NCBI GenBank assembly: GCA_043732665.1
Contig: JAYTHK010000220.1
Location: 8,860 to 72,859 of the forward strand
From: Cytophagales bacterium
Lineage (GTDB): Bacteria > Bacteroidota > Bacteroidia > Cytophagales > Cytophagaceae
Direction of reading: 5' to 3'
DNA: 64,000 nt
Positions 8,050 through 41,406 of this stretch are shown piece by piece. The notes beneath the pieces were generated by a model. The model was not told the origin of the DNA, made no database searches, and saw only the letters and a list, made by a program, of their open reading frames with translations. How positions within the stretch are numbered: position 1 is the first letter of the stretch; each line of letters opens with the position of its first letter. The position numbers and the translations under genes are program-made.

Positions 8050-8059
8050 TAATAAAGAG

Positions 8060-8902: not shown

Positions 8903-8908
8903 AGCAAG

Positions 8909-9670
8909 ATGGAAAATGCACCGCACATAAGTGTTCAGAATTTGAATTTATATTATGGTAATAACCATGCGTTGAAAAATATTAATATTGATATTCCAAA
9001 TAAAAAAGTAACATCCTTTATTGGGCCATCAGGCTGCGGGAAAACTACTTTGCTGAAGACCTTTAATCGTTTGCACGATACTACTGCAGATGCTAGAGTA
9101 GAAGGTAAAGTGTTGGTTGATGGCGAAAATATTTACGATTCGAATGTCGAAGTAACTTCTATTCGGAAAAAAATGGGACTTTTGTCGCAACGGCCATTTC
9201 CTTTACCTATGAATATATACGACAATATCGCTTATGGACCTCGTATTCACGGTACACGAGATAAAAAAGTATTGGATAAAATCGTAGAACAAAATCTAAG
9301 AGATGTGGCACTTTGGGATGAAGTGAAAGATAGATTAAAGCAACCCGCAGTGCGCCTCTCTATAGGGCAGCAGCAGAGACTTTGCTTGGCGAGGGGCTTG
9401 GCGGTAAACCCAGAGATTATATTAGGAGACGAACCTACCTCTGCACTTGATCCAATTTCTACACATAAAATTGAAGAGCTTTTTTTGGAACTGAAAGGTA
9501 AGTATACCATAGTCTTGGTTACACACATTCTTCGTCAAGCAAGACGCGTATCAGACTATGTAGCGTTTGTTTATAATGGAGAAATAATAGAATTCGGTCC
9601 AACGGAAGAAGTGCTGTTGAACCCACAAAAAGAATTGACAAAAGATTACGTTAGAGGATTTATAAGTTAG
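8909..9670 (+). CDS. pstB: Phosphate ABC transporter ATP-binding protein
   Basis: It has Walker A GPSGCGKTT, signature LSIGQQQRLCLARGLA, Walker B ILGDEPTSALD and a PstB-type N-terminus. Confidence 0.95.
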   Translation: MENAPHISVQNLNLYYGNNHALKNINIDIPNKKVTSFIGPSGCGKTTLLKTFNRLHDTTADARVEGKVLVDGENIYDSNVEVTSIRKKMGLLSQRPFPLPMNIYDNIAYGPRIHGTRDKKVLDKIVEQNLRDVALWDEVKDRLKQPAVRLSIGQQQRLCLARGLAVNPEIILGDEPTSALDPISTHKIEELFLELKGKYTIVLVTHILRQARRVSDYVAFVYNGEIIEFGPTEEVLLNPQKELTKDYVRGFIS

Positions 9671-11783: not shown

Positions 11784-13454
11784 TTATCGCAATTGAAGGC
11801 TTAGGCTATTTAATTTCAAGTTTTTCTTTTCTTTGTTCCACACAAAAGTTGAAATTTTGCAATCTAAATCAACAGCTTTTGGGATGTCTACAGTCATTGA
11901 AAAATAGTGCTTAGGAATAAATTTATTATAATTAGTATTCAATTTGAGTGATGTGCAATAAATAATAGAATTATTTTTTTCAATAATGAAAAAAAGTTCT
12001 GCATTGGTAATAGGAGTATGAAGCTCAACATCAGCACTAAGCATAGCACATCTGAAACTAGAAAGTGTGTAATGTCTTTGATTTACAAAAATTCCTTCTG
12101 AAAATTCTTTTTCAGAAGTTAAATTGGAATCTTTTACCTTGATTTTTTTATAATATCCTCCTCGTAAAATCAAGTTTGAATATTCCTTAAAGTCCCACTC
12201 CGAACCAGCAAAACATTTGTCGAAGGAATAGATAAGTTTGAAATTAAATAATACGCCTATAAAAATAAGGGCAGCAAGTAAAATTCTTATTTTATTTTGA
12301 GTAGAATGGAGCCAATGTATTATATGACCTAATGGTAATGCAAAAAAAGAAGCATACTCTACTAAAGCTCTATCACTATAACTACAACCTAATGAAACTA
12401 TGAACCAGGCTCCTCCGATATATAAGAGCAGGAGGAACATACTAAGAACCAAAATGCCATTATTTATTTTCTTTATTATCATATAAATCATTCCTCCCAG
12501 AATTATTATAAATAGCGGTGTATAAAGGAACAGTCCATTGTTTGGAGAAAATAATAATTCTATAATTTTAGGCGCATTCCAATTCGAAAAAGTTTCATCT
12601 CTATATCCATAATAGATCCAATTTCCAGTTAAATATTTCCAATATAAAGATTGAGGGAGAAGGAAGAGCGAGAATGTAATCGTAAAAATCAAAAGGTATT
12701 TCCAGTTCGTAAACTCCTTTATTCGGAGGAGGACGCCATTTGTTGAGTTACAATTTAAGAAAATAGGAATAAAAATTATGACGAAGTTAATCGGTCGAAC
12801 CAAGAAAATTATAGAGAATGCAATAGCCCAAAATAGAAAGATTATTTTTTTATTTTGTGAAGCGGATATTAATTTTCCTGTTAAATAAAAAAAAAGAGTA
12901 AACAGGCAAAAAGAATAAATGTGAGACATCCCAGAGCTGTCCGTTGAATAATAGAACACATTGGTTCCAAAAAAAATACAGAGAGCTGTAATTACAGATA
13001 AGCAATCGCTAAAGTATTGTTTCAGAAATTTAATAAGCAAAACAATGCCTATAAAAGAATAAAAAAGCGACGCTAGATTTGGAACTTGATAATACAAATC
13101 TGAAAATCCATTCTGAGACTCTTTAGGTAGATTTGTACAATAATGTATAAAGAGAAAAAAAGGAGCTTGAAGTAGCGCTACTCCATAAGTATATTTGGTG
13201 CTTATTTTATTTTCAACTGTGTCAATAACAAAGCCATATCCAGTAATTGCTTCGATATTTTTTGGAAATTGTTTTGCATCAAAATTATAAATGAAAAGGC
13301 TTGGTAAAAGTACATAGTAGCCTCCCTGATCTGCCCATAGTTCACTTCTCCATCCCTTTTCATGGTTGGAATATTTCTGATAAGTGAACGAAGATAAAAT
13401 TAGAAAAAGTAAGACGTAGAGTGCGTATTTTTTTAAATGAGGAATAATTTTCAT
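11784..13454 (-). CDS. Polytopic membrane protein, GT-C-fold (ArnT/PMT-like) glycosyltransferase candidate with a C-terminal beta-rich domain
   Basis: 556 aa with at least 10 predicted TM helices and an early extracytoplasmic loop ELWADQGGYY. The family assignment comes from overall architecture only. Its ATG overlaps the stop of the upstream receptor gene (ATGA at 13451-13454). Confidence 0.4.
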   Translation of the reverse strand: MKIIPHLKKYALYVLLFLILSSFTYQKYSNHEKGWRSELWADQGGYYVLLPSLFIYNFDAKQFPKNIEAITGYGFVIDTVENKISTKYTYGVALLQAPFFLFIHYCTNLPKESQNGFSDLYYQVPNLASLFYSFIGIVLLIKFLKQYFSDCLSVITALCIFFGTNVFYYSTDSSGMSHIYSFCLFTLFFYLTGKLISASQNKKIIFLFWAIAFSIIFLVRPINFVIIFIPIFLNCNSTNGVLLRIKEFTNWKYLLIFTITFSLFLLPQSLYWKYLTGNWIYYGYRDETFSNWNAPKIIELLFSPNNGLFLYTPLFIIILGGMIYMIIKKINNGILVLSMFLLLLYIGGAWFIVSLGCSYSDRALVEYASFFALPLGHIIHWLHSTQNKIRILLAALIFIGVLFNFKLIYSFDKCFAGSEWDFKEYSNLILRGGYYKKIKVKDSNLTSEKEFSEGIFVNQRHYTLSSFRCAMLSADVELHTPITNAELFFIIEKNNSIIYCTSLKLNTNYNKFIPKHYFSMTVDIPKAVDLDCKISTFVWNKEKKNLKLNSLSLQLR

Positions 13455-15424
13455 TTTTTCTTTAACACTTTAATTTCCGCCAAATATTTTTCTTCTTTCT
13501 GCGAAAAGCCTTCCTGTGTAGCCATTAGTTCTTCTACCTGCTGGCGCATTTCTTCTTCTTGTTGGCGCAACATCTCTTCTTTATTGAGTGATTCTTCCAG
13601 CATTTTCCTTGTAGTATCGTTAAACAGTACATTGCTAAGTGTGGAAGAAATCTGATCCGTAACTTTCTTCAGCACTTCGTATTGAAGTGGAGTGAATTCT
13701 TTTAGGGAAGCCATTTCGATCAACCCTACAAATTGGTTATTGAATTGTAGCGGCTCAATAATAATTAACTTTGGAGTAGTTTGTCCAAGTCCTGAAGAAA
13801 TAGAAATATACTCTTCTGGTACATTATTAATTTCTATTCTTTCTTTGTCCTTCATACACTGACCTAAAAGTCCTTCGCCTTCTTGGATTTCCATTCCATC
13901 TAGTCTTTTCTCGTCTAGACCATAACCTGAAGCGAGTTTAAGGTGGCTTTCCCCTGGAGATAAAAGATATAACACAGCAAGTCTGCACTCAAAGTATTCT
14001 GCAACAAATTTTATTATTTTTTTGTAAAGTTGATCCTTGTCGTTGAGGTAGTTAGCAATGATAGTGCTGAGTTCGGAAATTCCACCAGAAACATATTTTT
14101 CTCTCGCTATTTGCGCTTCTACTTGTTGCTGTAAATTTTTTCTAACTTCTTCCGTTTTAAATTGAGTTTGGGCAAGTTCAGAAAGTGCTTCTTCTTGACT
14201 GATTACTAAATCTTGCATTTTTATTTTTATTCGTTCACCAAGGGCGAGGGAAATAAAAAGCATTTGAAAAGCTTCTCCTATTAAGTGCATGTATACGGTA
14301 AGAATAGTATTAGGAAATAAACTATTCATGGTCAGTTCTCGGATGGTATAGCCGATCACTAACATTAGCATAGCCACCGTAAAATAACGCAATTGTCTAT
14401 GCCCATTATACAATGCCAAGAAAGAAAGAATAAGAATAGAAGCCCTAATAAAGATATCAAAAAGGAAAATCGGAAACAGTGTAATTCCTCCGACACTAAA
14501 GAGCAGATAAATAAAACGAATGGCTATAAAAATAAGACCAATTCGTATATACTTTTTATCAGGTTTCGTCTCTTTGAGAAATTCGTATGCAAGTACTAAA
14601 AATAGACTGATAACAAGGAACGATGCTACTTGTTGAATTAAATTGTTAATCTGAGGAAGTTCGTTCCAAAGAAACTGAAAGCCCAATCCATCTTGGGTAG
14701 AACTATACAGTGCAGCAGTATATACATAGAAGACATAAACTAAATAAATTTTCAACCTGGTCACAAAATACTGCATCAAGTTGAAAATCATTAAAGTGAT
14801 TGCCAGCCCATAAAACAGAGCCAGATAGAAGTACTCTTTTAAGGCATATTCAATAAAAGAGTGAATGTTTCGTATTGCGCCTTTAAAAAAGACGGGATGA
14901 GCGCCTTTTATTCTTATGTAAATAGTCTGTTCAACATCGTAGGACAAATTAAGATCAAAAATGAAATTTTTATGTTTGTATTGGCGACTTGTAAATGTTT
15001 TGCTATCACCACTCTCAATAAGCATATATTTCCCAGTTTCGTTTGGAGCATAAAAAGCAACATCGTCTGAAGATTGGTCGAAGACTTCAAAAACCCATCT
15101 ATTGGTATCTTTCGTAAGTTTTTTTATTTTTATTCTGGCCCAATAAGAGACATCGGCTTTTGAAGTGATGGGCACATCCAGTTTATCCTTATAAAATTTA
15201 TTGTCATATTTCCCTGCGGCAATTTCTGCGATGGAAAATTGACTTTCTGGATCTTCGAGTAGTTCTAGGTTTTCTCCTTTCCAATAGTGTAATTCATTTA
15301 TATCCTTTTCATTAATTGTAATCGGAACAACGTCAATACCATAAGATGAATAGGATACTAAAAAGAGATAAAACAAGGTTAATGCCCTGCTTATGATGCT
15401 ACTATGTTTTTCAAAAATACCCAA
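13451..15424 (-). CDS. 7TMR-DISM receptor (DISMED2 extracellular domain plus 7TM) fused to a cytoplasmic GAF domain and a Glu/Gln-rich coiled-coil tail. No recognisable output domain.
   Basis: The N-terminal jelly-roll-like region contains WARIKIKK...YIRIKG. The 7TM block is YFYLALFYGLAITLMIFNLMQYF..GLGFQFLW. The GAF region is CRLAVLYLL...GLLGQCM...FVGLIEMAS. The tail is EEMLRQQEEEMRQQVEELMATQE. The ORF uses a TTG start. Confidence 0.8.
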   Translation of the reverse strand: MGIFEKHSSIISRALTLFYLFLVSYSSYGIDVVPITINEKDINELHYWKGENLELLEDPESQFSIAEIAAGKYDNKFYKDKLDVPITSKADVSYWARIKIKKLTKDTNRWVFEVFDQSSDDVAFYAPNETGKYMLIESGDSKTFTSRQYKHKNFIFDLNLSYDVEQTIYIRIKGAHPVFFKGAIRNIHSFIEYALKEYFYLALFYGLAITLMIFNLMQYFVTRLKIYLVYVFYVYTAALYSSTQDGLGFQFLWNELPQINNLIQQVASFLVISLFLVLAYEFLKETKPDKKYIRIGLIFIAIRFIYLLFSVGGITLFPIFLFDIFIRASILILSFLALYNGHRQLRYFTVAMLMLVIGYTIRELTMNSLFPNTILTVYMHLIGEAFQMLFISLALGERIKIKMQDLVISQEEALSELAQTQFKTEEVRKNLQQQVEAQIAREKYVSGGISELSTIIANYLNDKDQLYKKIIKFVAEYFECRLAVLYLLSPGESHLKLASGYGLDEKRLDGMEIQEGEGLLGQCMKDKERIEINNVPEEYISISSGLGQTTPKLIIIEPLQFNNQFVGLIEMASLKEFTPLQYEVLKKVTDQISSTLSNVLFNDTTRKMLEESLNKEEMLRQQEEEMRQQVEELMATQEGFSQKEEKYLAEIKVLKKK

Positions 15425-29055: not shown

Positions 29056-29877
29056 ATGGAGGAAATAGGCATAGCAGAATTAAAAAAGTTGACGGAGCTG
29101 ATAAAGCAGAAATTTGGATATGATTTCAAAGATTATGCAATGTCTTCTTTTAAAAGACGGATAATTAGGGTTTTAGAGTTAAAAAAAATTTCTACAGTAG
29201 AGAGTCTTATTGTGCAAATAGAGAATAACGTTTTTGTAAAAGAAGACTTCCTTCACGAAATAACGGTAAATGTGACCGAACTCTTCAGAGACCCCTCTTT
29301 TTGGAGAGTTATAAAGTCAGTGCTTCCCAATTTATACCTAAATCAGGATAAAATAAAGATTTGGCACGCAGGCTGCTCTTCTGGTGAAGAAGTGTATTCT
29401 ATGCTAATCGTTCTGAAAGAAATGGATTTGATCGATAAAGTAGAGATCATCGCAAGTGATATTGACAAATGTATTTTGGCAAAAGCAAAAGAAGGTAAGA
29501 TTGCTTTAAGGAATATGGAGTTGAATGAGAAGAACTATATTCGTTACAATCCCAGTGGCGATTTAAAGAAATATTTTATCTATGACAAAGACTTTGCATA
29601 CTTCGACAAAGACTTATTGTCGAAGGTTTCTTTTAGAGAAATCAATTTAACAGAAGTAAAGGCATTTACGAAATGCGATCTTATTCTTTGTAGAAACGTA
29701 ATGATTTACTTTAATCAAAATTTACAAAACGAGGTTATTAAATTATACCACGAGATGTTATATACTTATGGCTATTTGGCCATTGGTTCTAAGGAGTCGA
29801 TTATATGGAGTGAATATGCAAATAAATTTTTGGTGGTGAACGGTGAGGAGAAAATTTATAAAAAATTCAAAGAATAA
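29056..29877 (+). CDS. cheR: CheR-type protein-glutamate O-methyltransferase
   Basis: It has an all-alpha CheR_N start (LTELIKQKFGYDFKDYAMSSFKRRI), TELFRDP, and the SAM site IWHAGCSSGEEVYS...ILCRNVMIYF. Confidence 0.9.
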   Translation: MEEIGIAELKKLTELIKQKFGYDFKDYAMSSFKRRIIRVLELKKISTVESLIVQIENNVFVKEDFLHEITVNVTELFRDPSFWRVIKSVLPNLYLNQDKIKIWHAGCSSGEEVYSMLIVLKEMDLIDKVEIIASDIDKCILAKAKEGKIALRNMELNEKNYIRYNPSGDLKKYFIYDKDFAYFDKDLLSKVSFREINLTEVKAFTKCDLILCRNVMIYFNQNLQNEVIKLYHEMLYTYGYLAIGSKESIIWSEYANKFLVVNGEEKIYKKFKE

Positions 29878-29931
29878 TCTTCTGATTATCAATAGTAACA
29901 ACAATGTATATCAGAGATAGAAATAGTCGTA

Positions 29932-30528
29932 ATGAGTGAGGCAGACTTAAATAGACGATACAAAGTAATTGTAATAGGAGGTTCTGCAGGTAGCTTTTCA
30001 GTATTGGCTAATATACTAAGTAAGATACCGAAAGATTTCACCATTCCGATCGTCCTCTGTTGTCACCGTTTAAAACATGTGAGGAGTGGTTTCATAGAGG
30101 CGTTAGAAATAAAAAGTGTAAAAAAAGTAGTAGAACCTGACGATAAGGAAGCTATTAGAAAAGGCAAAGTTTACGTGGCACCTGCAAACTATCATTTAGG
30201 ATTTGAAATTGGAAATAGCTTTGCACTTTCTACGGAGGAGATGGTAAACAATTCCAGACCTGCCATCGACATTACCTTTGAAACGGCAGCGTACGTGTAC
30301 AGAGAAAAAATGGTAGGTATCTTACTTACTGGTGCTAATAAAGATGGAGCACTTGGGATGAGATGTGTGAAGGAAGCAGGAGGACTTACCATAGTGCAGG
30401 AACCTTCGGAGTGCACCATTGATACAATGCCTAAGGCGGCGATGGCTGCTACAAAAATAGATTATGTGATGAAGGTAGAGGAGATTGTGAAATTTCTTAA
30501 TAATATACATAAAACACATTTATCTTAA
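29932..30528 (+). CDS. cheB: CheB-type protein-glutamate methylesterase, catalytic domain only (no receiver domain)
   Basis: 198 aa. It has VIVIGGSAGS (Ser), VLCCHRL (His), ILLTGANKDGALG (Asp) and IVQEPSEC. Confidence 0.88.
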   Translation: MSEADLNRRYKVIVIGGSAGSFSVLANILSKIPKDFTIPIVLCCHRLKHVRSGFIEALEIKSVKKVVEPDDKEAIRKGKVYVAPANYHLGFEIGNSFALSTEEMVNNSRPAIDITFETAAYVYREKMVGILLTGANKDGALGMRCVKEAGGLTIVQEPSECTIDTMPKAAMAATKIDYVMKVEEIVKFLNNIHKTHLS

Positions 30529-30529
30529 T

Positions 30530-31309
30530 ATGAAAAAAAGCATCATCACAATCGGGTTACTCTTAGTTTATTTAGTAACTTTTTTACTCCTGTTTATGAA
30601 ACTTAGAAGTATGTCTACAGTTGCACAGGAAGAACTTTCAGTAAAAAGTATTTATTATATTCTTGGTGCTATGTTTTTCGCAGGCATTGCAGCTTCCTTT
30701 TATTTGCTGACAACTTCAAGTAATAGCAAAAGCACAGTAGCACTTGAAAAGGAATCAGAAGTAGTTTCATTTGAAGAAAACAAAGACGTTTCTACAGAGA
30801 GTGAAATGGAAATTTCTAGAAGAGCAGAACAAGAAATAGAAATTATAAAAGTAGCGTTATCGTCGTTAGTTAATCAAAATGGTTTTTCTCATAAAGAAAA
30901 AATAGACAAAGCGATTTGGAAACTTTGCGATCATTTTGAAATAAGTCAAGCACTTTTATATACTAAGGGAGAAGAAAAAGGAAAGTTTAACTTAATCGCT
31001 TCTTATGCTTTTATTGCTTCTGACAATGATCCCAAATATATTATGTCTGGTGAAGGACTAGCTGGCCAGGCAGTGATAGACGGTAAGCCTTATTTTGTGA
31101 ACGATATTCCACAAGGATATTTGAAAGTCGTTTCTGGACTAGGAGAATCACTCCCAAAAACATTATTAATAATCCCATGCCTACAGGAAGCCAAGGTGCA
31201 AGCTGTATTTGAACTATCTAGTCTTCAAGAATATTCTAAAAATAAATTTGAAGAAATAGTTTTAATTTGTAATTATCTCTCAACTTTAATAACTAAATAT
31301 AAACCATGA
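30530..31309 (+). CDS. Two-TM membrane protein with a cytoplasmic GAF domain
   Basis: It has two N-terminal TM helices, an acidic linker and a GAF-like C-terminal half (QALLYTK...GLAGQAVIDGKPYFVNDI...LLIIPC..VQAVFELSS). It starts 1 nt after the cheB stop. Confidence 0.75.
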   Translation: MKKSIITIGLLLVYLVTFLLLFMKLRSMSTVAQEELSVKSIYYILGAMFFAGIAASFYLLTTSSNSKSTVALEKESEVVSFEENKDVSTESEMEISRRAEQEIEIIKVALSSLVNQNGFSHKEKIDKAIWKLCDHFEISQALLYTKGEEKGKFNLIASYAFIASDNDPKYIMSGEGLAGQAVIDGKPYFVNDIPQGYLKVVSGLGESLPKTLLIIPCLQEAKVQAVFELSSLQEYSKNKFEEIVLICNYLSTLITKYKP

Positions 31310-31830
31310 AAATCATTACTTACCAATTTTATTATAGATTATTTATGCTATTCATATTTATCCTGATCGGATTAAATTTGAATGCACAGGTAAATTATAA
31401 GGTGCACTCTTTGTTTATCTATAAATTCACACAATACATAGAATGGCCGTCGAATCAGGGAGATTTTGTAATAGGTGTGATAGGTAACTCCCCAATACAA
31501 GCAGAATTAGAAGCGATAGCTGCTATCAAAAAAGTAGATACGCGCACGATAGTGGTAAAAAAAATGTCTGCTTCGGCGGACTTAAGTACGTGTCAAATGG
31601 TATTTATTGCGGAAGGGCAAAGTGGCAATCTTGCTTCTATCTCTGCAAAGTTACAAGGTAAACATACACTTATAATAAGCGAGACAAATGGGGGCGCTAA
31701 GAAGGGAGCAGGAATAAATTTTGTGATCGTAGACGATAAAATGAAATTCGAACTCAATAAAGGAACAGTAGAAAAGCAGGGGTTAAAAGTGTCAGGAGAT
31801 CTGACAAAATTAGCAATAGTGGTTGGTTAG
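31306..31830 (+). CDS. YfiR-like periplasmic protein (DUF4154 family)
   Basis: It has a signal peptide ending LNAQ, the family block VHSLFIYKFTQYIEWP, and later VFIAEG...TLIISE..GAGINFV..DKMKFELN. Its ATGA overlaps the upstream gene. Confidence 0.75.
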   Translation: MKIITYQFYYRLFMLFIFILIGLNLNAQVNYKVHSLFIYKFTQYIEWPSNQGDFVIGVIGNSPIQAELEAIAAIKKVDTRTIVVKKMSASADLSTCQMVFIAEGQSGNLASISAKLQGKHTLIISETNGGAKKGAGINFVIVDDKMKFELNKGTVEKQGLKVSGDLTKLAIVVG

Positions 31831-31908
31831 AGGAGTATTCTAATGTTTAACAATTTTACCCAATAATAAATAAGTTTATTTACTAATTAACCCTTTAAAG
31901 TTTAAAAC

Positions 31909-34134
31909 ATGAAGAAAAACATACTAAAATTAATCCTTGGAATAGGAACGTTTTTACTGGTCTCAATCGGAACTGCTTCTGCACAAACAGACAGTTTATC
32001 GGATGATATCAGTTTAGAAGATCTGATGAACGTAAAGATCGTTTCTGTTTCTAAAAAAGCAGAAAATTTATTTGATGCACCTTTGTCTGCGTCAAGCATA
32101 AGCCGCGAAGAAATCAAAAGAGCAGGGGCTAATTCTATCATGGAAGCCTTGAGATTAGTTCCAGGTGTAATGGTAACAGAAAGTACCAATGGAAACTATC
32201 AGGTTAGTTTGAGAGGTTTTGGAAACCTTCCTCCTGGAACTTCTTTAAATTTTGCGACGAACTCCATTACACTTGTAATGATTGACAATAGACCCGTTTA
32301 CAATTATTTCAACGGAGGAACTTTCTGGGAAACACTTCCAGTAGATTTGAACGACGTTGAAAAAATAGAAGTGGTGAGAGGTCCTGCTGCTGCGGTTTAC
32401 GGGCCAAATGCTGCTGCCGGTGTGATTAACATCATCACAAGAAGACCTGATAAAAATGGTTTGTATACCGTTGCGAATGCTCAAATCGGAACGCCAAATC
32501 AGGTTATTACAAATGCTTCTGTGGGCTATAAATTTGACAAATTTGATTTTATCGTTTCTGGAAACCAACAATACAGAACTAGGACAGAGACCGATTACTA
32601 CTCATGGGTAGACGGTAAAAAAGAAAACGTAGACAGTATTAAAACAAGTTTTCCAGCAGCGTTAATGTCGGATACATCACTTAATCCTAATGCTAATAAA
32701 AGGTATCCGCACAAAAGTACTTCTATGAATAAGTATGGCTACAATGCTTTCCTTAATTATAAAGTCTCTCAAAAATCGCTTATAAGTATGGCTTTTGGAG
32801 GAGAAAGTGCTATGGTACAAAAAGCGTTTATTGAAAATTTGGCTTCTCCTTTATCTACCTCTCAGTCTGATTCTAAATATTTAGACATAAAAGGAAAGTT
32901 TAATCACTTTTCTATTCAAGGTTCTTATTTAGGAGGCACTCAAGACGAAGGAGTAGGTCAAATAGGCTATAAGTATAACTTCAATACAGTCGATGCAAAT
33001 GCTGATTATGAATTTATATATAAGAGCTTGTCCATAAAACCCGGGGTTTCCTATAGAAAAGCTACTTACGATGATTCTAAATATGCGCATATCGATACGC
33101 ATCAAGGATTTCTTGGTGGAAAAAAAGCACTAGAAAATTATTCAGGGTCTTTAAGGTCGGAATTAACAGTCGTTAAAATAGTAAAATTAACAGCTGCGGG
33201 AAGACTCGATGGATACAATCATCCTAATAAAGCATACTTGTCTTATCAATTAGGAGCTACTGCTAAATTGAACGAAAAAAATCTTGTTAGATTCGTTGTT
33301 TCCAGAGCATACAAAGGGCCTAATATGTACGATACTTATGCTTCTAATAACATATATGTTGGTACAGCACAAGCAGGTCCATTCACGCCTCCTTTATATG
33401 CGCAGGCTTTGGGAAGTCAAAATCTTAAAATGCAAAGTGTAGATATGCTTGAAGTGGGGTATAGAGTGAAGGCGACTAGTAACTTGTATTTTGACTTGGA
33501 AGTCTTTAATCAAATTTCTCAAAATTTTACTTATTTGGTCAACCAGCCTTACAAAATCGAGGCTAATGGATTTGGTATTCCTACTAAAGTTACCGTAGTT
33601 CAGAAATCAGACAATATAGATATGAAAGCCATTCAAACAGGAGCAACACTTTCTGCTAACTGGGTAATTGGTAAATTTCAGATCAAACCTTTTATAACGT
33701 TCCAACAAACGAATTTGAAAAAGGTACCTGTATACAGAGATGCGGATAGTGTTAGTGCTACTCAAAATGTTCATGTAACGACAGATAAAAAAGATGCGGC
33801 TACTCCTAATTACTATGGTGGTGCATACATCAACTATGCTGCAACTTCAAGATTGAATATTAACGTGACGGGATATTATTATAGTAATTATACATATTCT
33901 AATATATATAATCTGCTGTACAATACTCCTACTAACCCAACTCCAAATCCTGATGCAGGTATAGCTAAAGTAAACGGTAAAGTACTTATCAATGCTAAAG
34001 TTTCTTATAAATTCTTTAACAAATTGGATCTGTTTATAGCGGCTAAAAATATCATGAACAATACAGGTTATGAATTTGCGCATACTGATAAAATTCTACC
34101 AACCTTCTTGGTAGGTGGTAATTTCGAATTCTAA
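31909..34134 (+). CDS. TonB-dependent outer-membrane receptor
   Basis: It has a signal peptide and a plug region (LEDLMNVKIVSVSKKAENLFDAPLSASSISREEIKRAGANSIMEALRLVPGV, IEVVRGPAAAVYGPNAAAGVINIITR). A long beta-barrel ends in GGNFEF. Confidence 0.92.
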   Translation: MKKNILKLILGIGTFLLVSIGTASAQTDSLSDDISLEDLMNVKIVSVSKKAENLFDAPLSASSISREEIKRAGANSIMEALRLVPGVMVTESTNGNYQVSLRGFGNLPPGTSLNFATNSITLVMIDNRPVYNYFNGGTFWETLPVDLNDVEKIEVVRGPAAAVYGPNAAAGVINIITRRPDKNGLYTVANAQIGTPNQVITNASVGYKFDKFDFIVSGNQQYRTRTETDYYSWVDGKKENVDSIKTSFPAALMSDTSLNPNANKRYPHKSTSMNKYGYNAFLNYKVSQKSLISMAFGGESAMVQKAFIENLASPLSTSQSDSKYLDIKGKFNHFSIQGSYLGGTQDEGVGQIGYKYNFNTVDANADYEFIYKSLSIKPGVSYRKATYDDSKYAHIDTHQGFLGGKKALENYSGSLRSELTVVKIVKLTAAGRLDGYNHPNKAYLSYQLGATAKLNEKNLVRFVVSRAYKGPNMYDTYASNNIYVGTAQAGPFTPPLYAQALGSQNLKMQSVDMLEVGYRVKATSNLYFDLEVFNQISQNFTYLVNQPYKIEANGFGIPTKVTVVQKSDNIDMKAIQTGATLSANWVIGKFQIKPFITFQQTNLKKVPVYRDADSVSATQNVHVTTDKKDAATPNYYGGAYINYAATSRLNINVTGYYYSNYTYSNIYNLLYNTPTNPTPNPDAGIAKVNGKVLINAKVSYKFFNKLDLFIAAKNIMNNTGYEFAHTDKILPTFLVGGNFEF

Positions 34135-34198: not shown

Positions 34199-37100
34199 AT
34201 GAAACTGAGATTTGGAATAAGGCAAAAAGTGTATTTAGGATTTTCTATCCTTATCGTATTATTTGTGGCAAATGCCGTTGTAAGTCTTATCACACTTGAG
34301 AAGAATAGAAAACTTATTGCAGAGGTTTCAGAAGTAGTAGACCCTTCGCTCGAATCGCTTGATCAGCTAACGCTAATGGTCAATAAATCAAAGATGCTTT
34401 CTACCAACTGGGTTTTCATGAAGACCAACGAAGAAGATAAAAAAGCACTTAAAAAATTGATGGATAAAGAATATCCTGCCTTAAAGGCGAATATTATAAC
34501 CTTAAAGAAAAGATGGAGAGATGCAGTAGTTTCTAAAGAGATGGATGCTGTACTAAAAGATTTTGACAACCTTATTAAAGCTGAAAAAGAAGTGGTTGAG
34601 CTTCTTCCTAATTTTGAATCCTATGAAGATGGTAGTACTCTTTTTCTCGCACAAGATGGCATAGAATCGCAGGTATTGACGATGTCTGCCGAACTAATGA
34701 AAAGACTTGGGGCTGTTTCTTCAAAAAAGAAACAAGAAAAAGTGGAGTATGAAAAAGACCTTATAGCTTCTTCCGACAATCTTCAATTCAGTGTATTGAT
34801 ATTGGGAGCACTAGTTGTATTTATTGGAATATTTGCTTCCATTTTTATGGCAAATACAATCACGGAGCCGGTAAATAAAATACGTGATATAATGATAAAA
34901 TTGGGCGCTGGAGAGCTTCCTAAAATTGAATTTGAAAAATCAAAAGACGAAATGGGGGAGATGCAAAATGCGATCAGCAATGTGATAGCAGGTCTTGCCC
35001 AAACCACCGAATTTGCAAATAAAATAGGTCAGAAAGAATTAGACGCAGAGTACAAACCACTTAGTAATAAAGACGTTTTAGGGTTATCTCTTATACACAT
35101 GAGAGACAGTCTGAAAGAATCAGACAAAACGGAACGAGAAAGGTCTTGGGTGATGGACGCTTCTTCTGAAGTAAATGATATTCTCCGGAAACACGACAAT
35201 ATCGACTTGCTGAGCGAAGAAGTATTGCAGTATATTATAAAAAGAATAGACGCCATACAAGGCGCTTTTTATGTGGTGACAGAAAGAGATACTACGGATT
35301 ATAGAAATACATTTCTGGAAATGAAATCCAGTTTTGCTTACAATAGAAAAAAATATTTGACTGCTAAGTTTAGAATGGCAGAAGGATTGGTAGGACAAGC
35401 AGCGATTGAACAAAGTACTTTATTAAGAACAGAAATTCCAAGAGAGTACGTTTCGATCACTTCGGGACTTTTGGGAGACAAACGCCCAACGTGCATTCTT
35501 ATCGTGCCACTCGCTATAGACGATGTCGTATACGGTGCAGTGGAGTTTGCAGGGTTTCATAAATTTGAAGAACACGAAATTCGATTTGTCGAAGAAGTTG
35601 GTCCTAGTATTGCCAGAACGATTTATAATATTCAGTCCAATCAGGAAACAAAATTGTTGCTCGAAAAATCTCAGATTATGGGACAAGAGCTTCAGGAGAA
35701 ACAGGAAGAGCTTTTGCAGAATGCAGAAGAAATGAAAGTGACTCAGGAAGAATTGGAGAAATCTAATGTTTTACTCGAAGAACAAATAGGCGAAGTAAGT
35801 CTGGCACAAGATCGGATGGAGCAATTGCTCTACAATGCTTCGGAAGTAATTACCATATACGAGGCCGATGGCACAATACGTTATATAAGTCCTTCGGTAA
35901 AAAATATACTTGGATACGATCCTGAAGAGCTTATAGGACTTAAAGGTAGAACGTTCGTACACGAAGAAGATATTCATAAATCCAGAAATATGTTTAAGGG
36001 TATTTTGGAAAATTCTGAAGCCTCTCAAACTATACAATACCGTTTCCAAAAGAAAAACAATCAGTGGATATGGCTGGAAGCTACAGGGAAAAATTTACTT
36101 AGCGATGCTTCGGTAAAAGGAATTGTAATCAATGCGCGCGACATTACGGTGAAGATGAAAGCAGAGCAAGAAGAGCGCATGAGAAGGAATATGCAAGCGC
36201 TTTCTGAAAACAGCCCCGACCTTATTACACGTATTAGTGTAGAAGGAAAGATTGCGTACACAAATCCCACTATTGAATTGTATACTACTTCTAAAGCCGA
36301 AGATTTTACAGGTAAAATGTTGGGAGATATTACGATAGGTGCAGAAGTTGTAAAATCGTGGAAGTTATTGCTGGAAGAGGTAAAACTGAAGAATGAAAAC
36401 ATCTCAGAGGAAGTTACTTACAAAACGCCAACGGGAGACCGCATTATGCAGGTTAATGCTATTCCAGAGTACAACGATAATGTGTTGGAGTCTGTTTTGA
36501 TGGTAGCACATGATATTACAGAACGAAAAGAAGCAGAATTGCTTATTCAGGATAAAAATAAGAAGATTAACGAGAGTATCAATTATTCTAAACGTATTCA
36601 GAATGCCGTAATTCCCGATAATAAAGCGATTACCAACATATTCAAAGATTCCTTTATTTTCTACCATCCAAAAGATGTGGTAAGCGGAGACTTTCCTTGG
36701 ATGATGGAAAAAGGCGACGAAATTTATGTAGCCGCTGTCGATTGTACAGGCCATGGTGTACCGGGTGCAATGCTTTCTTTGGTAGGAAATTTTTTACTAA
36801 ACGATATTATTCGCAATGGTAATTCTTTGAGTCCAGCTGTCATTTTGGATAAATTTGATGAGATGGTAAATACTACCTTAGCGACGGAAAAGAACGATTC
36901 GCAGATAAAAGACGGAATGGATATCGCTCTTTGTAAAATAAACATTAAAACCCGAAAACTGGAATATGCAGGAGCACATAGGCCGCTTTATCATATCAGC
37001 AAAGGGGAATTACATGAATATAAAGGCGATAAATGGGCGATAGGTGGAGGTGTTTATAAGAACCAGACAAAATTTACTAACTACGAAGTGAATCTAAAAA

Positions 37101-37315
37101 AGGACGACGCCGTATACATCTTCTCTGACGGGTTGCCTGATCAGTTTGGTGGACCAAATGTTAGGAAATTTGGACCGCAACGCATAAAAGAAGTGGTAAT
37201 GAGTCAAAATCAGAATATGGAACTTACCTATAATGCGATGAAAACAGAGTTTCACAACTGGATGGGAGCCCAAAAACAAACCGACGATGTTTTGTTGATC
37301 GGAATAAAATTCTAA
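34199..37315 (+). CDS. MCP-like four-helix-bundle sensor, TM, HAMP, GAF, coiled coil, 2-3 PAS domains and a PP2C/SpoIIE phosphatase (SiaA-like)
   Basis: It has an MCP-type N-terminus MKLRFGIRQKVYLGFSILIVLF, a second TM helix near residue 200 and a HAMP region (ITEPVNKIRDIMIKLGAGELP). The GAF region contains GAFYVV..GLVGQAA. PAS blocks include EVITIYEADGTIRYISPS and LITRISVEGKIAYTNP. PP2C motifs are VSGDFPW, AAVDCTGHGVPGA, IFSDGLPDQFGG and QTDDVLLIGIKF. Confidence 0.88.
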   Translation: MKLRFGIRQKVYLGFSILIVLFVANAVVSLITLEKNRKLIAEVSEVVDPSLESLDQLTLMVNKSKMLSTNWVFMKTNEEDKKALKKLMDKEYPALKANIITLKKRWRDAVVSKEMDAVLKDFDNLIKAEKEVVELLPNFESYEDGSTLFLAQDGIESQVLTMSAELMKRLGAVSSKKKQEKVEYEKDLIASSDNLQFSVLILGALVVFIGIFASIFMANTITEPVNKIRDIMIKLGAGELPKIEFEKSKDEMGEMQNAISNVIAGLAQTTEFANKIGQKELDAEYKPLSNKDVLGLSLIHMRDSLKESDKTERERSWVMDASSEVNDILRKHDNIDLLSEEVLQYIIKRIDAIQGAFYVVTERDTTDYRNTFLEMKSSFAYNRKKYLTAKFRMAEGLVGQAAIEQSTLLRTEIPREYVSITSGLLGDKRPTCILIVPLAIDDVVYGAVEFAGFHKFEEHEIRFVEEVGPSIARTIYNIQSNQETKLLLEKSQIMGQELQEKQEELLQNAEEMKVTQEELEKSNVLLEEQIGEVSLAQDRMEQLLYNASEVITIYEADGTIRYISPSVKNILGYDPEELIGLKGRTFVHEEDIHKSRNMFKGILENSEASQTIQYRFQKKNNQWIWLEATGKNLLSDASVKGIVINARDITVKMKAEQEERMRRNMQALSENSPDLITRISVEGKIAYTNPTIELYTTSKAEDFTGKMLGDITIGAEVVKSWKLLLEEVKLKNENISEEVTYKTPTGDRIMQVNAIPEYNDNVLESVLMVAHDITERKEAELLIQDKNKKINESINYSKRIQNAVIPDNKAITNIFKDSFIFYHPKDVVSGDFPWMMEKGDEIYVAAVDCTGHGVPGAMLSLVGNFLLNDIIRNGNSLSPAVILDKFDEMVNTTLATEKNDSQIKDGMDIALCKINIKTRKLEYAGAHRPLYHISKGELHEYKGDKWAIGGGVYKNQTKFTNYEVNLKKDDAVYIFSDGLPDQFGGPNVRKFGPQRIKEVVMSQNQNMELTYNAMKTEFHNWMGAQKQTDDVLLIGIKF

Positions 37316-37342: not shown

Positions 37343-37921
37343 ATGGCCTTAGTTACATATTTATTTAAACAGAAACCTATGAAGTATATCTATGAGATTC
37401 AGAAAATAATGTCATCCAAGAACCTGATGTTAGTTTATGAAGGTGAATTCACGCAGGAAATCACAAAATCGGTATTGTCGATGACAGAAAGAAACCTTGA
37501 ATCTATTGGTGAAGAGTCCGGTATAAAAAGAAAAGTGTTTAATGTGATGGTAGAATGTTTGCAAAATATATGCAAACACGCGGATACTTTTGAAGCCAAT
37601 CAAGAAGAGAAAGGCGCAGTATTTATGATAGGAAGAGAAGAAGGTAGTTATGCTATTACTTCTGGAAATTTTATTCTGAATACTCAAACGGAAGGCTTGA
37701 GAGCAAAATTGTTACATATTAATTCGCTTGATAAAGAAGGATTAAAAGGCTTCTACAAAGAACTTATAAAAAGCAGTGAGATTTCAGACAAAGGAGGAGC
37801 TGGTCTTGGGTTTGTAGATATAGCTAGGAAGTCTGGACAGAAACTAGATTTTGATTTTGAAAAAGTGAACGACGAGTATTCCTTTTTCTCATTTAAAACA
37901 AAAATCAGTAAAGAAGAGTAA
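37343..37921 (+). CDS. SiaB-like small protein kinase (anti-sigma/RsbW-type GHKL fold)
   Basis: 192 aa. It has LMLVYEGEFTQEIT, VMVECLQNICKHAD and the ATP-lid-like GGAGLGFVDIARKSG. It lies immediately upstream of a DUF1987 gene. Met-13 (37379) is an alternative start. Confidence 0.7.
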   Translation: MALVTYLFKQKPMKYIYEIQKIMSSKNLMLVYEGEFTQEITKSVLSMTERNLESIGEESGIKRKVFNVMVECLQNICKHADTFEANQEEKGAVFMIGREEGSYAITSGNFILNTQTEGLRAKLLHINSLDKEGLKGFYKELIKSSEISDKGGAGLGFVDIARKSGQKLDFDFEKVNDEYSFFSFKTKISKEE

Positions 37922-37940: not shown

Positions 37941-38303
37941 ATGCAAATTATACAATTAGAAGGTACAGAGGATACACCAAAAGTACTATTGGATAAAGCG
38001 AATGGAATCTTAGAAATTTCTGGAAGATCGCTTCCTGAGGATGCAGCAGAGTTTTATCAGCCTATTTTAAATTGGCTTGCCGACTATGCAGGTCAAGCAA
38101 ACCCATCAACTGAACTCGTAATAAAATTAGAATATTTTAATACAGCCTCTTCTAAATTAATTTTGGATGTACTTTCGAAATTGGAGGAAGTGAAAGGCTC
38201 TAGAGTTACGTGGTATTATTATGAAGACGATGAAGATATGCAGGAAGCGGGTGTTGAGTTTTCAGAACTAGTAGATGTGCCGTTTGAATACAAAACATAT
38301 TAA
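37941..38303 (+). CDS. SiaC-like DUF1987 regulatory phosphoprotein
   Basis: 120 aa. It has TEDTPKVLLDKANGILEISGRSLPEDAAEFYQPILNWL, the motif YFNTASSK with Thr at position 68, and an acidic C-terminal YYYEDDEDM. Confidence 0.75.
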   Translation: MQIIQLEGTEDTPKVLLDKANGILEISGRSLPEDAAEFYQPILNWLADYAGQANPSTELVIKLEYFNTASSKLILDVLSKLEEVKGSRVTWYYYEDDEDMQEAGVEFSELVDVPFEYKTY

Positions 38304-38331: not shown

Positions 38332-41300
38332 ATGAGTGAGGAGATACTAAAGTCGCTTGCGCAGTTATACGCAATTATTACAAAGCAGGATGGTGGGGTT
38401 ACAGAGAGCGAAAAAGCCTTTGTGGTTAATTCATTCAAGAAAAAGCTGAACCTTGCTACTGCGGAGCAATATATTAACCTCTACGAAGAATTCATAAAAG
38501 AAGGAGAGGGTAAGGACGATGGTAAAAAAAGACTTACTTCTGTAAAAGACTCCGTAAAAACGCTCGGTATTTGTCGCAAGATAAATAAAACGCTTACCCA
38601 GAAACAAAAGATAGTAGTACTGGTAGAGCTTCTGGAGATTTTAAAATCAGAAAAAAGCAAAGATGCTGCTCAGCAACAAGAGATTGTAGATACTGTAGCC
38701 ATTGCTTTTAATATTGAAAAAGAGGAGTATAAAACCATTCAGACTTTTGTACTCCACGACGATATACAGCTTTTTGGAGACGAAAATATTCTTGTGATCA
38801 ACAACAGGGATTCTTCCACCATTCCCGGTAATTCAAAACATATTCACTCCGATCTTACAGAAGGAAATATATTTTTTGTAAGAGTGAAAAGTGTGGACAT
38901 GATTTTTCTGAAATATACAGGAGACGATGAAATTACGCTGAACAGTTTAATAATAGGAGAAGACGATGTAACGCTTTTTTCGCAAGGCAGTACTGCTAAA
39001 TCAAAACTTGGTGGTGTATTTTATTATAGCGATGTATTGTCGCACTTTATCAGTGAGTCCGCTTCCGTAAAATTATCTTTTCAAGTAAGCAATCTTGAAT
39101 TTAGATTTCCCAATCATAAAATAGGCCTGAGAGATGTAAATATATCCGAAGAATCGGGGAAACTCATAGGTATAATGGGGGGCAGTGGCGCGGGTAAAAC
39201 TACTTTACTTAACGTATTGGCAGGGCTCGAAAAGCCATACAAAGGAGATGTATTGATAAATGGATTTAACCTCCATAAAGAAAAATATAAGGTAAGAGGT
39301 GTTATCGGTTATATTCCACAGGATGACTTATTGATCGAAGAGCTTACTGTTTTTGAAAATTTATTTTACAGCACGAAGCTTTGTTTTAAAAATAAAACAG
39401 ACGAAGAAATAACAGTACTTGTAAAGAAAGTATTAGATAATTTGGGCCTCGCACAAAGCAAAGACTTGCGTGTAGGAAACGCGTTGAATAAGTCTATTAG
39501 CGGTGGGCAACGCAAGCGGTTAAACATAGCGCTTGAATTGATTCGTGAGCCGTCGGTTCTTTTTGTAGACGAACCAACCTCAGGACTTTCTTCCAGAGAC
39601 TCTGAAAACGTAATGGATTTACTCAAAGAGCTTACGTTGAGAGGAACACTTATTTTTGTAGTGATTCACCAGCCTTCGTCCGATATCTACAAGATGTTTG
39701 ACAAGATGTTTATGTTGGATGTGGGAGGTTTTCCAATCTACTACGGCAATCCGGTGGAAGCAATCACCTACTTTAAGAAAGTTTCTCAACAAGCAGACAG
39801 CGACAAAGGTCAGTGCAATACCTGTGGAAATGTAAACCCAGAGCAGATCTTTAACATCATAGAAGAAAAGGTAGTAGACGAATACGGTAACTTTACAGGA
39901 AGTAGAAGATTTACGCCCAAGCAATGGAACGATTCTTTCGTTAGTAAGTTTGAACTGAAAAGAGTAGAAGATATCAAAACGAATACTATTGGTGTTTTGC
40001 AAATTCCAAATACGATAAAACAGTTCTGGGTATTTACGGTAAGAGATTTTAAATCCAAGCTTTTCAATAAGCAGTATATGCTTATCAATCTTATCGAAGC
40101 TCCTTTGTTGGCCTTTATATTGTCCTTTATCTTGCGTTACAACAATAACACCAGTGGAACTGGATATGTGTTTAGGTACAATGAAAATATTCCTGCATAT
40201 ATATTAATGAGTATTGTAATTGCAATTTTCATTGGTTTAAGTATAAGCGCAGAGGAAATTATAAAAGACAAAAAAATACTTAAAAGAGAAACGTTTCTAA
40301 ATCTTAGTAGGAATAGTTATTTACTGTCGAAAGTATTTATTCTTTTTATGTTTTCAGCAATCCAAACCTTAACTTTTGTATTAGTAGGAAATGCTATTTT
40401 GGAGATAAAGGGTATGTACCTCGAATATTGGGTGATACTGTTTTCTGTAGCCTGTTTTGCAAACCTGACCGGACTTATTATTTCCTCAGCCTTCGATACA
40501 GCGATTACCGTTTATATACTAGTGCCGCTTTTACTGATTCCTCAAATGATCTTGAGCGGTTCTATTTTTAGTTATGATAAAATAAATGACGTTATCAGAA
40601 GCAAAGATAAAGTGCCAGCGGTAGCCGACTTGATGGTGTCTCGCTGGGCGTACGAAGCCATAGCAGTAAAATCGTATAGGGATAATGGGTATGAAAAATT
40701 CTTTTACAAAGTAGAACAGAAAGAAAATGTTGCCAATTTTAACATTATCTATTTGCTTCCTGAGTTGAGCGAGCGTTTGGACTTTACGTATCAAAATCTA
40801 AATTCAAAAAGCGATTCAATTCTTAGATTGAGTAGTTATAATCTGGCAATAGTAAATGCGGAGTTGCTCAAGAAAAGTAATTACTCAGCACAAGGATTTC
40901 CTAAGAAAGAATTTGAATTTATTTCTATCGATAAATTAACGAATACTTCTTACGAGCAGTACAAAAAATATATAGAGGAGTTGTCTGACTACTATACTAA
41001 AATATTTAACGAATCCAGTAAGGAGAAAGATAATTATCTTTTCGCGCTGAGTAGACTTAATGGTGGTACAGACGTAAATAAATTGAAGGATAATTACTTC
41101 AATGAAAGTTTGTCTGACTTGGTGAGAAACGCCACTGCTAAGAAAAGAATAATAGATGCAAAAGGTTATTTAGCTCCCAAAACGGATTACATTTATTTCC
41201 GTCCTGTAGCAACGCAAGGCGCTTTTGATTATAGAGCTCACTTCTTTTCACCAGAGAAACATTTTGCTGGAAAGTATTACGATACATTTAAGTTTAATAT

Positions 41301-41406
41301 ATTTGTAATCTGGTTGGCTGGACTTTTCTTATACCTTGTATTGTATTTTGACTTATTAAGAAAGCTTCTGAATGTTTTTGGAAGGGTCACCATCCTGAAA
41401 ACGTAA
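38332..41406 (+). CDS. Fused TerB-like domain, beta-rich (weakly FHA-like) domain, ABC ATPase and ABC-2 (G-type) permease, with a ~220-aa C-terminal extension and a terminal TM helix
   Basis: The TerB-like N-terminus is LAQLYAIITKQDGGVTESEKAFV. It has Walker A GIMGGSGAGKTT, signature ISGGQRKRLNIALEL and Walker B LFVDEPTSGLS. The ABC-2 TM block covers roughly residues 575-780, and the last TM helix is FVIWLAGLFLYLVLYF. Confidence 0.85.
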   Translation: MSEEILKSLAQLYAIITKQDGGVTESEKAFVVNSFKKKLNLATAEQYINLYEEFIKEGEGKDDGKKRLTSVKDSVKTLGICRKINKTLTQKQKIVVLVELLEILKSEKSKDAAQQQEIVDTVAIAFNIEKEEYKTIQTFVLHDDIQLFGDENILVINNRDSSTIPGNSKHIHSDLTEGNIFFVRVKSVDMIFLKYTGDDEITLNSLIIGEDDVTLFSQGSTAKSKLGGVFYYSDVLSHFISESASVKLSFQVSNLEFRFPNHKIGLRDVNISEESGKLIGIMGGSGAGKTTLLNVLAGLEKPYKGDVLINGFNLHKEKYKVRGVIGYIPQDDLLIEELTVFENLFYSTKLCFKNKTDEEITVLVKKVLDNLGLAQSKDLRVGNALNKSISGGQRKRLNIALELIREPSVLFVDEPTSGLSSRDSENVMDLLKELTLRGTLIFVVIHQPSSDIYKMFDKMFMLDVGGFPIYYGNPVEAITYFKKVSQQADSDKGQCNTCGNVNPEQIFNIIEEKVVDEYGNFTGSRRFTPKQWNDSFVSKFELKRVEDIKTNTIGVLQIPNTIKQFWVFTVRDFKSKLFNKQYMLINLIEAPLLAFILSFILRYNNNTSGTGYVFRYNENIPAYILMSIVIAIFIGLSISAEEIIKDKKILKRETFLNLSRNSYLLSKVFILFMFSAIQTLTFVLVGNAILEIKGMYLEYWVILFSVACFANLTGLIISSAFDTAITVYILVPLLLIPQMILSGSIFSYDKINDVIRSKDKVPAVADLMVSRWAYEAIAVKSYRDNGYEKFFYKVEQKENVANFNIIYLLPELSERLDFTYQNLNSKSDSILRLSSYNLAIVNAELLKKSNYSAQGFPKKEFEFISIDKLTNTSYEQYKKYIEELSDYYTKIFNESSKEKDNYLFALSRLNGGTDVNKLKDNYFNESLSDLVRNATAKKRIIDAKGYLAPKTDYIYFRPVATQGAFDYRAHFFSPEKHFAGKYYDTFKFNIFVIWLAGLFLYLVLYFDLLRKLLNVFGRVTILKT

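Follow-up and report, generated by a model that had tools for sequence, protein, structure and literature searches.

Introduction

Reversible methylation of glutamates is the memory device that textbooks describe for bacterial chemotaxis, and it is nearly always treated as a property of arrays of methyl-accepting chemotaxis proteins (MCPs) with CheA. We have analysed a cheR/cheB gene pair located on a 64,000-nucleotide (nt) stretch of DNA from a Cytophagales bacterium, the whole of which is referred to here as the window (assembly GCA_043732665.1, contig JAYTHK010000220.1, positions 8,860 to 72,859). The pair opens a gene cassette that also encodes a sensor phosphatase, a small kinase, a phosphoprotein and an ABC transporter. 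The best explanation of the sequence evidence, to which we assign a probability of roughly 0.6, is that CheR and CheB tune the sensor phosphatase via a glutamate-rich helix and would in this way drive a phospho-switch, the output of which is probably the ABC exporter.

The closest described systems in which CheR acts in association with proteins other than MCPs are of two kinds. Proteins of the methyl-accepting coiled-coil (MAC) class were defined by Wuichet & Zhulin in 2010 and have been built into MiST; they are described as proteins combining a receptor with a kinase and as experimentally uncharacterised, MAC1 proteins incorporating CheB and CheR and MAC2 proteins being associated with separate CheB and CheR (PMC6943060; bioRxiv 10.1101/2022.05.07.491037). 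In Bacillus cereus, the hybrid kinase RsbK has the architecture CHASE3-HAMP-GAF, and the CheR-type enzyme RsbM methylates the S-helix behind the GAF domain of RsbK, as observed in vitro with labelled S-adenosylmethionine (SAM), in a pathway that leads through the PP2C phosphatase RsbY to a partner switch with sigma-B as its output and that has no dedicated esterase (PMC4574943). Orphan CheR and CheB are general in the Bacteroidia; a class bearing a name of its own (MAC) exists for them, and RsbK/RsbM serves as their experimental precedent. A search of the literature on CheR/CheB in combination with SiaABC, PP2C, GAF, Bacteroidetes or Cytophaga yielded no paper on the cassette described here.

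Results

The cheR gene (29056..29877, + strand) encodes a stand-alone protein-glutamate methyltransferase of 273 amino acids (aa), in which Pfam recognises a CheR_N domain (36.7 bits) and the CheR SAM domain (134 bits). The protein aligns over its full length with solved CheR structures, the AGCSSGEE, DID and RNVMIYF motifs are preserved, and identity over 75 cassette loci is 44–88%. Separated from it by a spacer of 54 nt, cheB (29932..30528, + strand) encodes a methylesterase/deamidase catalytic domain alone (198 aa), lacking a receiver domain. Its sole Pfam match is CheB_methylest (171 bits, profile positions 1–173 of 174), and Ser18, His45 and Asp138 occupy the catalytic triad positions of solved CheB domains (3SFT, 1CHD). 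The length of the spacer is such that a receiver domain could not fit before CheB, and every one of ∼80 CheB orthologues is likewise receiver-less, with a length of 187–214 aa and an identity of 62–87%. As CheB has no receiver domain, phospho-feedback onto it is impossible. An intact CheR and a receiver-less CheB of 198 aa had been described in an earlier note on this DNA, and the exact open reading frames (ORFs), the Pfam matches and the alignment of the triad agree with that description. The ORF coordinates also bear out its statement that the next gene, encoding a small transmembrane (TM)-GAF protein, is separated from the stop codon of cheB by 1 nt.

The pair is the beginning of a string of + strand genes which Pfam identifies, in order, as cheR, cheB, TM-GAF, YfiR-like, TonB-dependent receptor, a 1038-aa PP2C sensor, DUF6272, SiaC-family and TerB-ABC. 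DUF6272 (37343..37921, + strand) is a SiaB-like small kinase homologous to Pseudomonas aeruginosa SiaB (6KKO chain A, E = 1e-15), and the SiaC-like phosphoprotein (DUF1987; 37941..38303, + strand) is homologous to SiaC (6KKO chain C, E = 1e-13), with which the YxNT(A)SS phospho-site region aligns. On the basis of these two homologies to SiaB and SiaC, the phosphatase is termed SiaA-like. Synteny was investigated in 80 loci recovered using the CheB sequence. SiaA, SiaB and SiaC are together found downstream of cheB in 61 of 66 loci of sufficient length, or in 63 if tblastn matches are included; the small TM-GAF gene is next after cheB in 71 of 74 loci, the two genes overlapping or lying ≤3 nt apart in 51; and 57 of 60 sufficiently long loci contain the TerB-ABC gene. 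The general order, observed in ∼60 Cytophagales loci and also in five other Bacteroidia families, is cheR, cheB, small TM-GAF, SiaA-like PP2C phosphatase, SiaB-like, SiaC and TerB-ABC, and carriers include Marivirga tractuosa, Ohtaekwangia, Chryseolinea, Cesiribacter and Rhodocytophaga.

The SiaA-like sensor phosphatase (34199..37315, + strand; 1038 aa) consists of a TM helix, a helical periplasmic domain, a second TM helix, HAMP (residues 216–259), GAF (335–475), a heptad module, two PAS domains and PP2C (SpoIIE). Pfam detects neither HisKA nor HATPase in it, the output domain being SpoIIE/PP2C. With respect to the 4HB-HAMP architecture assigned previously, HAMP is present and the 4HB assignment is weak, 4HB_MCP_1 scoring 17.9 bits, below the cut-off. 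Orthologues were obtained from 65 loci, in many of which, including Marivirga, a dCache sensor domain replaces the helical domain. The GAF domain is followed by a helix spanning residues 479–548, within which lies the putative methyl-accepting helix (aa 486–532; 35654..35794, + strand). Residues 491–532, directly behind the GAF domain, form an insert of 42 residues, or six heptads, with the sequence SQIMGQELQEKQEELLQNAEEMKVTQEELEKSNVLLEEQIGE, and the candidate glutamate pairs are E503/E504, E510/E511 and E517/E518. The core of this insert, QE[EV]LRQNAEEMxATQEEL, is preserved in 65/65 SiaA-like orthologues. When all seven cassette families were scanned for columns that are ≥90% [EQ][EQ], the sole heptad-spaced series was that at positions 502/503, 510/511 and 516–518 of the SiaA-like protein. 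Few segments of the protein are conserved as strongly as the helix module, the column identity of which is 0.87–0.88 compared with 0.75 for GAF, 0.70–0.73 for PAS and 0.78 for PP2C. If folded as a coiled coil, it would place L/M and A/Q/N at the core and expose the glutamate pairs at b/c positions. The classic MCP methylation-site pattern is E-E-x-x-A-S/T, to which the middle heptad, AEEMxAT, presumably conforms. This near-invariant helix of heptad-spaced EE/QE pairs strengthens the case, made in the earlier note, for 34199..37315 as a candidate substrate. SiaB, SiaC and the ABC transporter were also considered as substrates and rejected; they contain isolated conserved EQ pairs alone and no heptad series.

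The same module closes the GAF domain of ∼600-aa TM-sensor-HAMP-GAF proteins, the genes of which lie directly upstream of cheR in 35 loci, where its motif reads QEEEMRQNMEELQATQEE and its core is present in 35/35 of these GAF-coil proteins. In two loci from two other families (L108 and L110), the SiaA-like homologues retain the flanks RTxxLLEE and SQKRLQALLENAS and lack exactly 42 residues between them, and the module is instead found on the protein encoded upstream of cheR. The absence of exactly six heptads, with both flanks kept, indicates that the module is a discrete, register-preserving unit.

Distribution of the module was investigated by profile search (profile A1). In the source assembly, which is metagenome-assembled, 3.33 Mb in size, 96% complete and divided into 429 contigs, the module is carried by five proteins: the phosphatase, a 7TMR-DISM-GAF protein encoded in the window and three GAF-module-PAS proteins (contigs C117, C67 and C138). 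Pfam detects no enzymatic output domain in the four carriers other than the phosphatase. The 7TMR-DISM-GAF-module sensor of the window (13451..15424, − strand; module at 13472–13609), recognised by the profile and by Pfam, stops ∼45 aa past the GAF domain. Its tail is the heptad module QQEEEMRQQVEELMATQEG, which is therefore its one cytoplasmic feature besides GAF. A strict triple [EQ]E-heptad pattern retrieved five ORFs from the entire assembly, corresponding to three GAF-coil proteins including the SiaA-like protein, a CheB-CheR fusion and one TolC-like false positive. The fusion, encoded outside the window (contig C95:1-2330, − strand) and truncated at the contig end, contains heptad repeats, NEELQSANEEIVSSNEELQSLNEELETSKEEIESTNEEL (NEELQSxNEEL type), straight after the CheR domain. 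It is a MAC1-type protein and constitutes the only further CheB/CheR in the assembly. In three relatives (G041, G016 and G030), 17–21 module-bearing proteins are encoded per genome, a repertoire size resembling that of MCP families.

The module is confined almost wholly to genomes possessing stand-alone CheR/CheB. In a class-wide sample of 251 Bacteroidia genomes, each at least 90% complete, it is found in 19, all 19 of which encode a stand-alone CheR, and in seven families a module gene is located no more than a few kb from cheR. In a sample of 61 relatives from the same order, 32 genomes contain the module and 30 of these contain CheB. A blind check of five further genomes never revealed the module without CheR. 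Eight loci in which cheR occurs without the module were inspected; several contain cheR-cheB beside kinases of the type CHASE3/4HB-HAMP-GAF-[EE heptads]-HisKA-HATPase-REC. In one of the eight (L117, G159:C5), a CheB esterase-receiver-PP2C fusion (7391-9217, − strand) adjoins cheR and a GAF-PAS hybrid kinase.

The absence of MCP, CheA and CheW from the window, on which the earlier note relied, extends to the whole source assembly, where profiles for MCPsignal (PF00015), CheW (PF01584) and the CheA dimerisation domain (PF02895) gave 0 matches while control genomes were positive. A complete CheY-CheA-CheW-MCP(4HB-HAMP)-CheR-CheD-CheB(REC) operon is present on a separate contig in four of six same-genus genomes, as exemplified by L123 (G003:C136, 2595-9898) and L121 (G001:C9, 8154-13319), with a single MCP in each. 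This operon was not found in the source assembly or in genome G005. Since congeners carry it and the assembly is fragmented, its absence here could represent either a real loss or a gap. The congeners' operon encodes its own CheR and a receiver-bearing CheB, and in the CheR tree a branch with 100/99 support splits the canonical-operon CheRs from those associated with cassettes and kinases. All cassette CheRs are grouped (87/84), and the window CheR lies within the cassette/kinase-associated clade. Thus, as the canonical operon has its own CheR/CheB and the CheR lineages are separate, a missed operon would not account for the pair. No MCPsignal match was obtained in 17 of the 30 genomes of the order sample that contain both module and CheB; in the class sample CheR is present in 96/251 genomes and MCPsignal in just nine; and the cassette is also kept in a complete genome without an MCP (G145). 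These observations, i.e. no canonical partners here, a cassette present in many MCP-less genomes and a separate CheR lineage, uphold the earlier proposal of a non-canonical substrate. They suggest that cheR and cheB are not chemotaxis remnants and most likely act as the adaptation-type module within a signalling cassette that is conserved in the Bacteroidota, and we are highly confident that the pair is a working part of this cassette.

The small membrane-anchored GAF protein (30530..31309, + strand; 259 aa, GAF_2 match) has two TM helices, a GAF domain and no C-terminal helix, and two TM helices are predicted in 65 of 73 members of its family. It is a putative accessory protein, anchored in the membrane, that is encoded in close coupling with cheB and occurs specifically in the PP2C cassette. 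A YfiR/HmsC-like periplasmic protein (DUF4154; 31306..31830, + strand) and a TonB-dependent receptor (31909..34134, + strand; Plug and barrel), both identified by Pfam, are clade-specific insertions, the YfiR-like gene occurring within the cassette solely in the clade of the window (L027–L033) and the receptor likewise. The insertion (31306-34134) separates the small GAF gene from the phosphatase gene; in two loci (L034 and L035), related genes are located divergently upstream of cheR. Pfam identifies the last gene (38332..41406, + strand) as a TerB-ABC ATPase-ABC-2 permease fusion, which is probably what the switch acts on as its output, and no GGDEF match was obtained in any cassette protein. 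A reduced cassette in a genome of the same family (L120, G011:C2, 8986-13937) comprises cheR, SiaB-like, SiaC and TerB-ABC; the genes for CheB, for the small GAF protein and for the phosphatase are missing from it. In L025 (G042:C33) the cassette has no adjoining cheR/cheB, these genes residing on another contig of that genome, and its 1238-aa SiaA-like ORF retains the helix flanks with a degenerate and lengthened motif (RKNAEELENKNLEIQKTNEEL). Scans of the operon for sigma-70 promoters and terminators gave counts no higher than in shuffled sequence, Bacteroidota promoters being outside the scope of the scan, and operon boundaries were therefore not drawn.

Discussion

Gene content, synteny, conservation, co-occurrence and lineage are the observations from which we infer each biochemical step of the following scheme, methylation included. 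CheR would methylate, and the receiver-less CheB demethylate, surface glutamates on the coiled-coil helix linking GAF to PAS-PAS-PP2C, the candidate residues being E503/E504, E510/E511 and E517/E518. The four output-less GAF-module sensors encoded elsewhere in the genome would probably be substrates too. Methylation may alter the packing of the helix and thereby set the gain of the phosphatase or reset its activity. The phosphatase would oppose the SiaB-like kinase and in this manner control phosphorylation of the SiaC-like protein, which probably regulates the neighbouring TerB-fused ABC exporter. As there is neither a CheA nor a receiver on CheB, any feedback would have to arise from the conformation of the substrate helix itself.

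Two rival readings concern the identity of the substrate. CheR and CheB could act mainly on the output-less GAF-module sensors, and these, by associating with the phosphatase, would pass the signal on to it. In many loci such a sensor is encoded directly upstream of cheR, in L108 and L110 no other protein carries the module, and the source assembly contains four of them (the window 7TMR-DISM-GAF protein and those on C117, C67 and C138). However, in the clade of the window no gene for an output-less sensor is present in the cassette, and the phosphatase itself bears the module with its core kept throughout; we consider this reading unlikely, and it is a variant of the preferred explanation rather than its true opposite. 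The second candidate put forward in the earlier note, the small TM-GAF protein, would be modified on a glutamate-rich juxtamembrane linker and would then regulate the phosphatase. Its gene is coupled to cheB (≤3-nt gap or overlap in 51/74 loci) and specific to the PP2C cassette, and the window copy does have a Glu-rich linker. Conservation of that linker is lacking, however: no conserved [EQ][EQ] pair exists among the 73 sequences of the family, the linker is of low complexity and cannot be aligned between genera, mean identity is 0.46 compared with 0.67–0.86 for the other cassette proteins, and no helix module lies behind the GAF domain. It is therefore improbable that this protein is the substrate, and comparison across the family does not support the suggestion.

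Two further alternatives were considered. The pair might serve a canonical MCP/CheA/CheW operon that is present in the organism and absent from the 96%-complete, 429-contig assembly, an idea in keeping with the occurrence of that operon in four of six same-genus genomes. The operon of the congeners nevertheless supplies its own CheR and REC-CheB, the cassette CheR belongs to a different, strongly separated clade, no MCP, CheW or CheA match at all was obtained in the source assembly, and the cassette is conserved in many MCP-less genomes, including the complete genome G145. A canonical operon located elsewhere, which the earlier note had named as the finding that would explain the pair, is thus not found in this assembly and would leave the pair unexplained, and we judge this reading very unlikely. 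The view that cheR and cheB are decaying relics without present function could draw on the absence of canonical partners from the assembly, but it is already contradicted by intact frames with preserved catalytic residues, by a gene order fixed in well over 60 species and by a protein identity of 62–88% across families, and is scarcely credible.

Several observations weigh against modification of the helix by CheR and CheB. In approximately 39 of the sampled genomes a stand-alone CheR is encoded but the module profile gives no match at E ≤ 1e-5; one of the relatives (G011) possesses CheR together with SiaB, SiaC and the ABC transporter and has no module anywhere in its genome; and conversely G028, which is 90% complete, and G055 contain the module and give no CheB match. 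Related genomes are not independent, so that the co-occurrence counts overstate significance and are taken as qualitative. E/Q alternation, the signature of deamidation, is frequent at MCP methylation sites, and none was found at the candidate sites among the orthologues. Searched against all solved structures, the module profile returned chance coiled-coil matches only, and for this reason homology to MCP methylation helices is not claimed; nor did Pfam detect homology of the module to MCP signalling domains. The resemblance of the module to MCPs is a short consensus within a Glu-rich coiled coil only, and the strong conservation of the helix could stem from signal transmission alone. Taking these points together with the heptad-spaced series, its position and its association with CheR/CheB, we regard the post-GAF heptad module as the probable methylation target of the two enzymes.

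A broader reading is offered tentatively, and we consider it doubtful at present. The GAF-plus-module proteins, five here and up to 21 in relatives, mostly without an output domain, could constitute a receptor repertoire analogous to the MCPs, which would feed one PP2C transducer through mixed coiled-coil/GAF assemblies, with one CheR/CheB pair adapting all members. If true, a chemotaxis-like architecture, with numerous receptors, a single enzyme, a single phospho-switch and a memory based on methylation, would have arisen from unrelated parts and would control an ABC exporter rather than motility.

The cassette suggests that, in a large phylum without flagella, the adaptation enzymes were co-opted for the tuning of a sensor phosphatase together with a Ser/Thr partner switch. 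The suggested switch would probably gate an exporter and would do so with neither a histidine kinase nor phospho-feedback to CheB. The MAC class gains a concrete candidate site, three glutamate pairs in a 42-residue helix, for which the homologues with and without the six-heptad module provide a natural comparison set. Such a system would also explain the abundance of CheR/CheB without chemoreceptors in the Bacteroidia (CheR in 96/251 genomes as against MCPs in 9).

Comparison with known systems indicates which parts of the cassette are shared and which are its own. The enzymes belong to the same families as CheR and CheB of Escherichia coli and Salmonella, with catalytic residues preserved, and the candidate glutamate pairs are, as in canonical MCPs, heptad-spaced on a helix behind a TM-sensor-TM-HAMP unit. 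In contrast to canonical chemotaxis, there is no match to an MCP domain, CheA or CheW here, CheB has no receiver, and the candidate helix is probably a parallel coiled-coil linker and not an antiparallel four-helix bundle as in canonical MCPs. In common with the SiaABCD system of P. aeruginosa (PMC8457831, PDB 6KKO), the cassette has a PP2C sensor phosphatase, a small kinase and a DUF1987 phosphoprotein in the same order; a TerB-ABC transporter occupies the place of the SiaD diguanylate cyclase, and CheR/CheB, a small GAF protein and a heptad module are all absent from the P. aeruginosa sia operon, as far as the literature describes it.

The closest parallels are to RsbK/RsbM and MAC2. As in RsbK, a sensor-HAMP-GAF unit is followed by a signalling helix and accompanied by an adjacent CheR-type gene, located here in the same operon, and the CHASE3/4HB-HAMP-GAF-[EE heptads]-kinase proteins encoded beside other Bacteroidia cheR-cheB pairs share the RsbK architecture. 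The B. cereus sensor is, however, a hybrid histidine kinase and RsbY a separate response regulator, whereas here PAS-PAS-PP2C is fused to the sensor; in addition, a CheB esterase is paired with CheR, the switch is of the SiaB/SiaC type and an exporter adjoins. The likeness to MAC2 consists of a stand-alone CheR and CheB linked to a sensor that is not an MCP and that has a Glu-rich coiled coil, CheA and CheW not being needed. The kinase-type loci of neighbouring Bacteroidia fit the MAC2 definition directly, and the window CheR is sister to theirs. The sensor here differs from the kinase of that definition in being a PP2C phosphatase that would feed a SiaB/SiaC switch and an ABC exporter, and several of the module carriers have no output domain of any kind. 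By analogy, the window cassette would work like a MAC2/RsbK system minus the kinase, set apart by its PP2C fusion, its paired CheB and its SiaB/SiaC switch.

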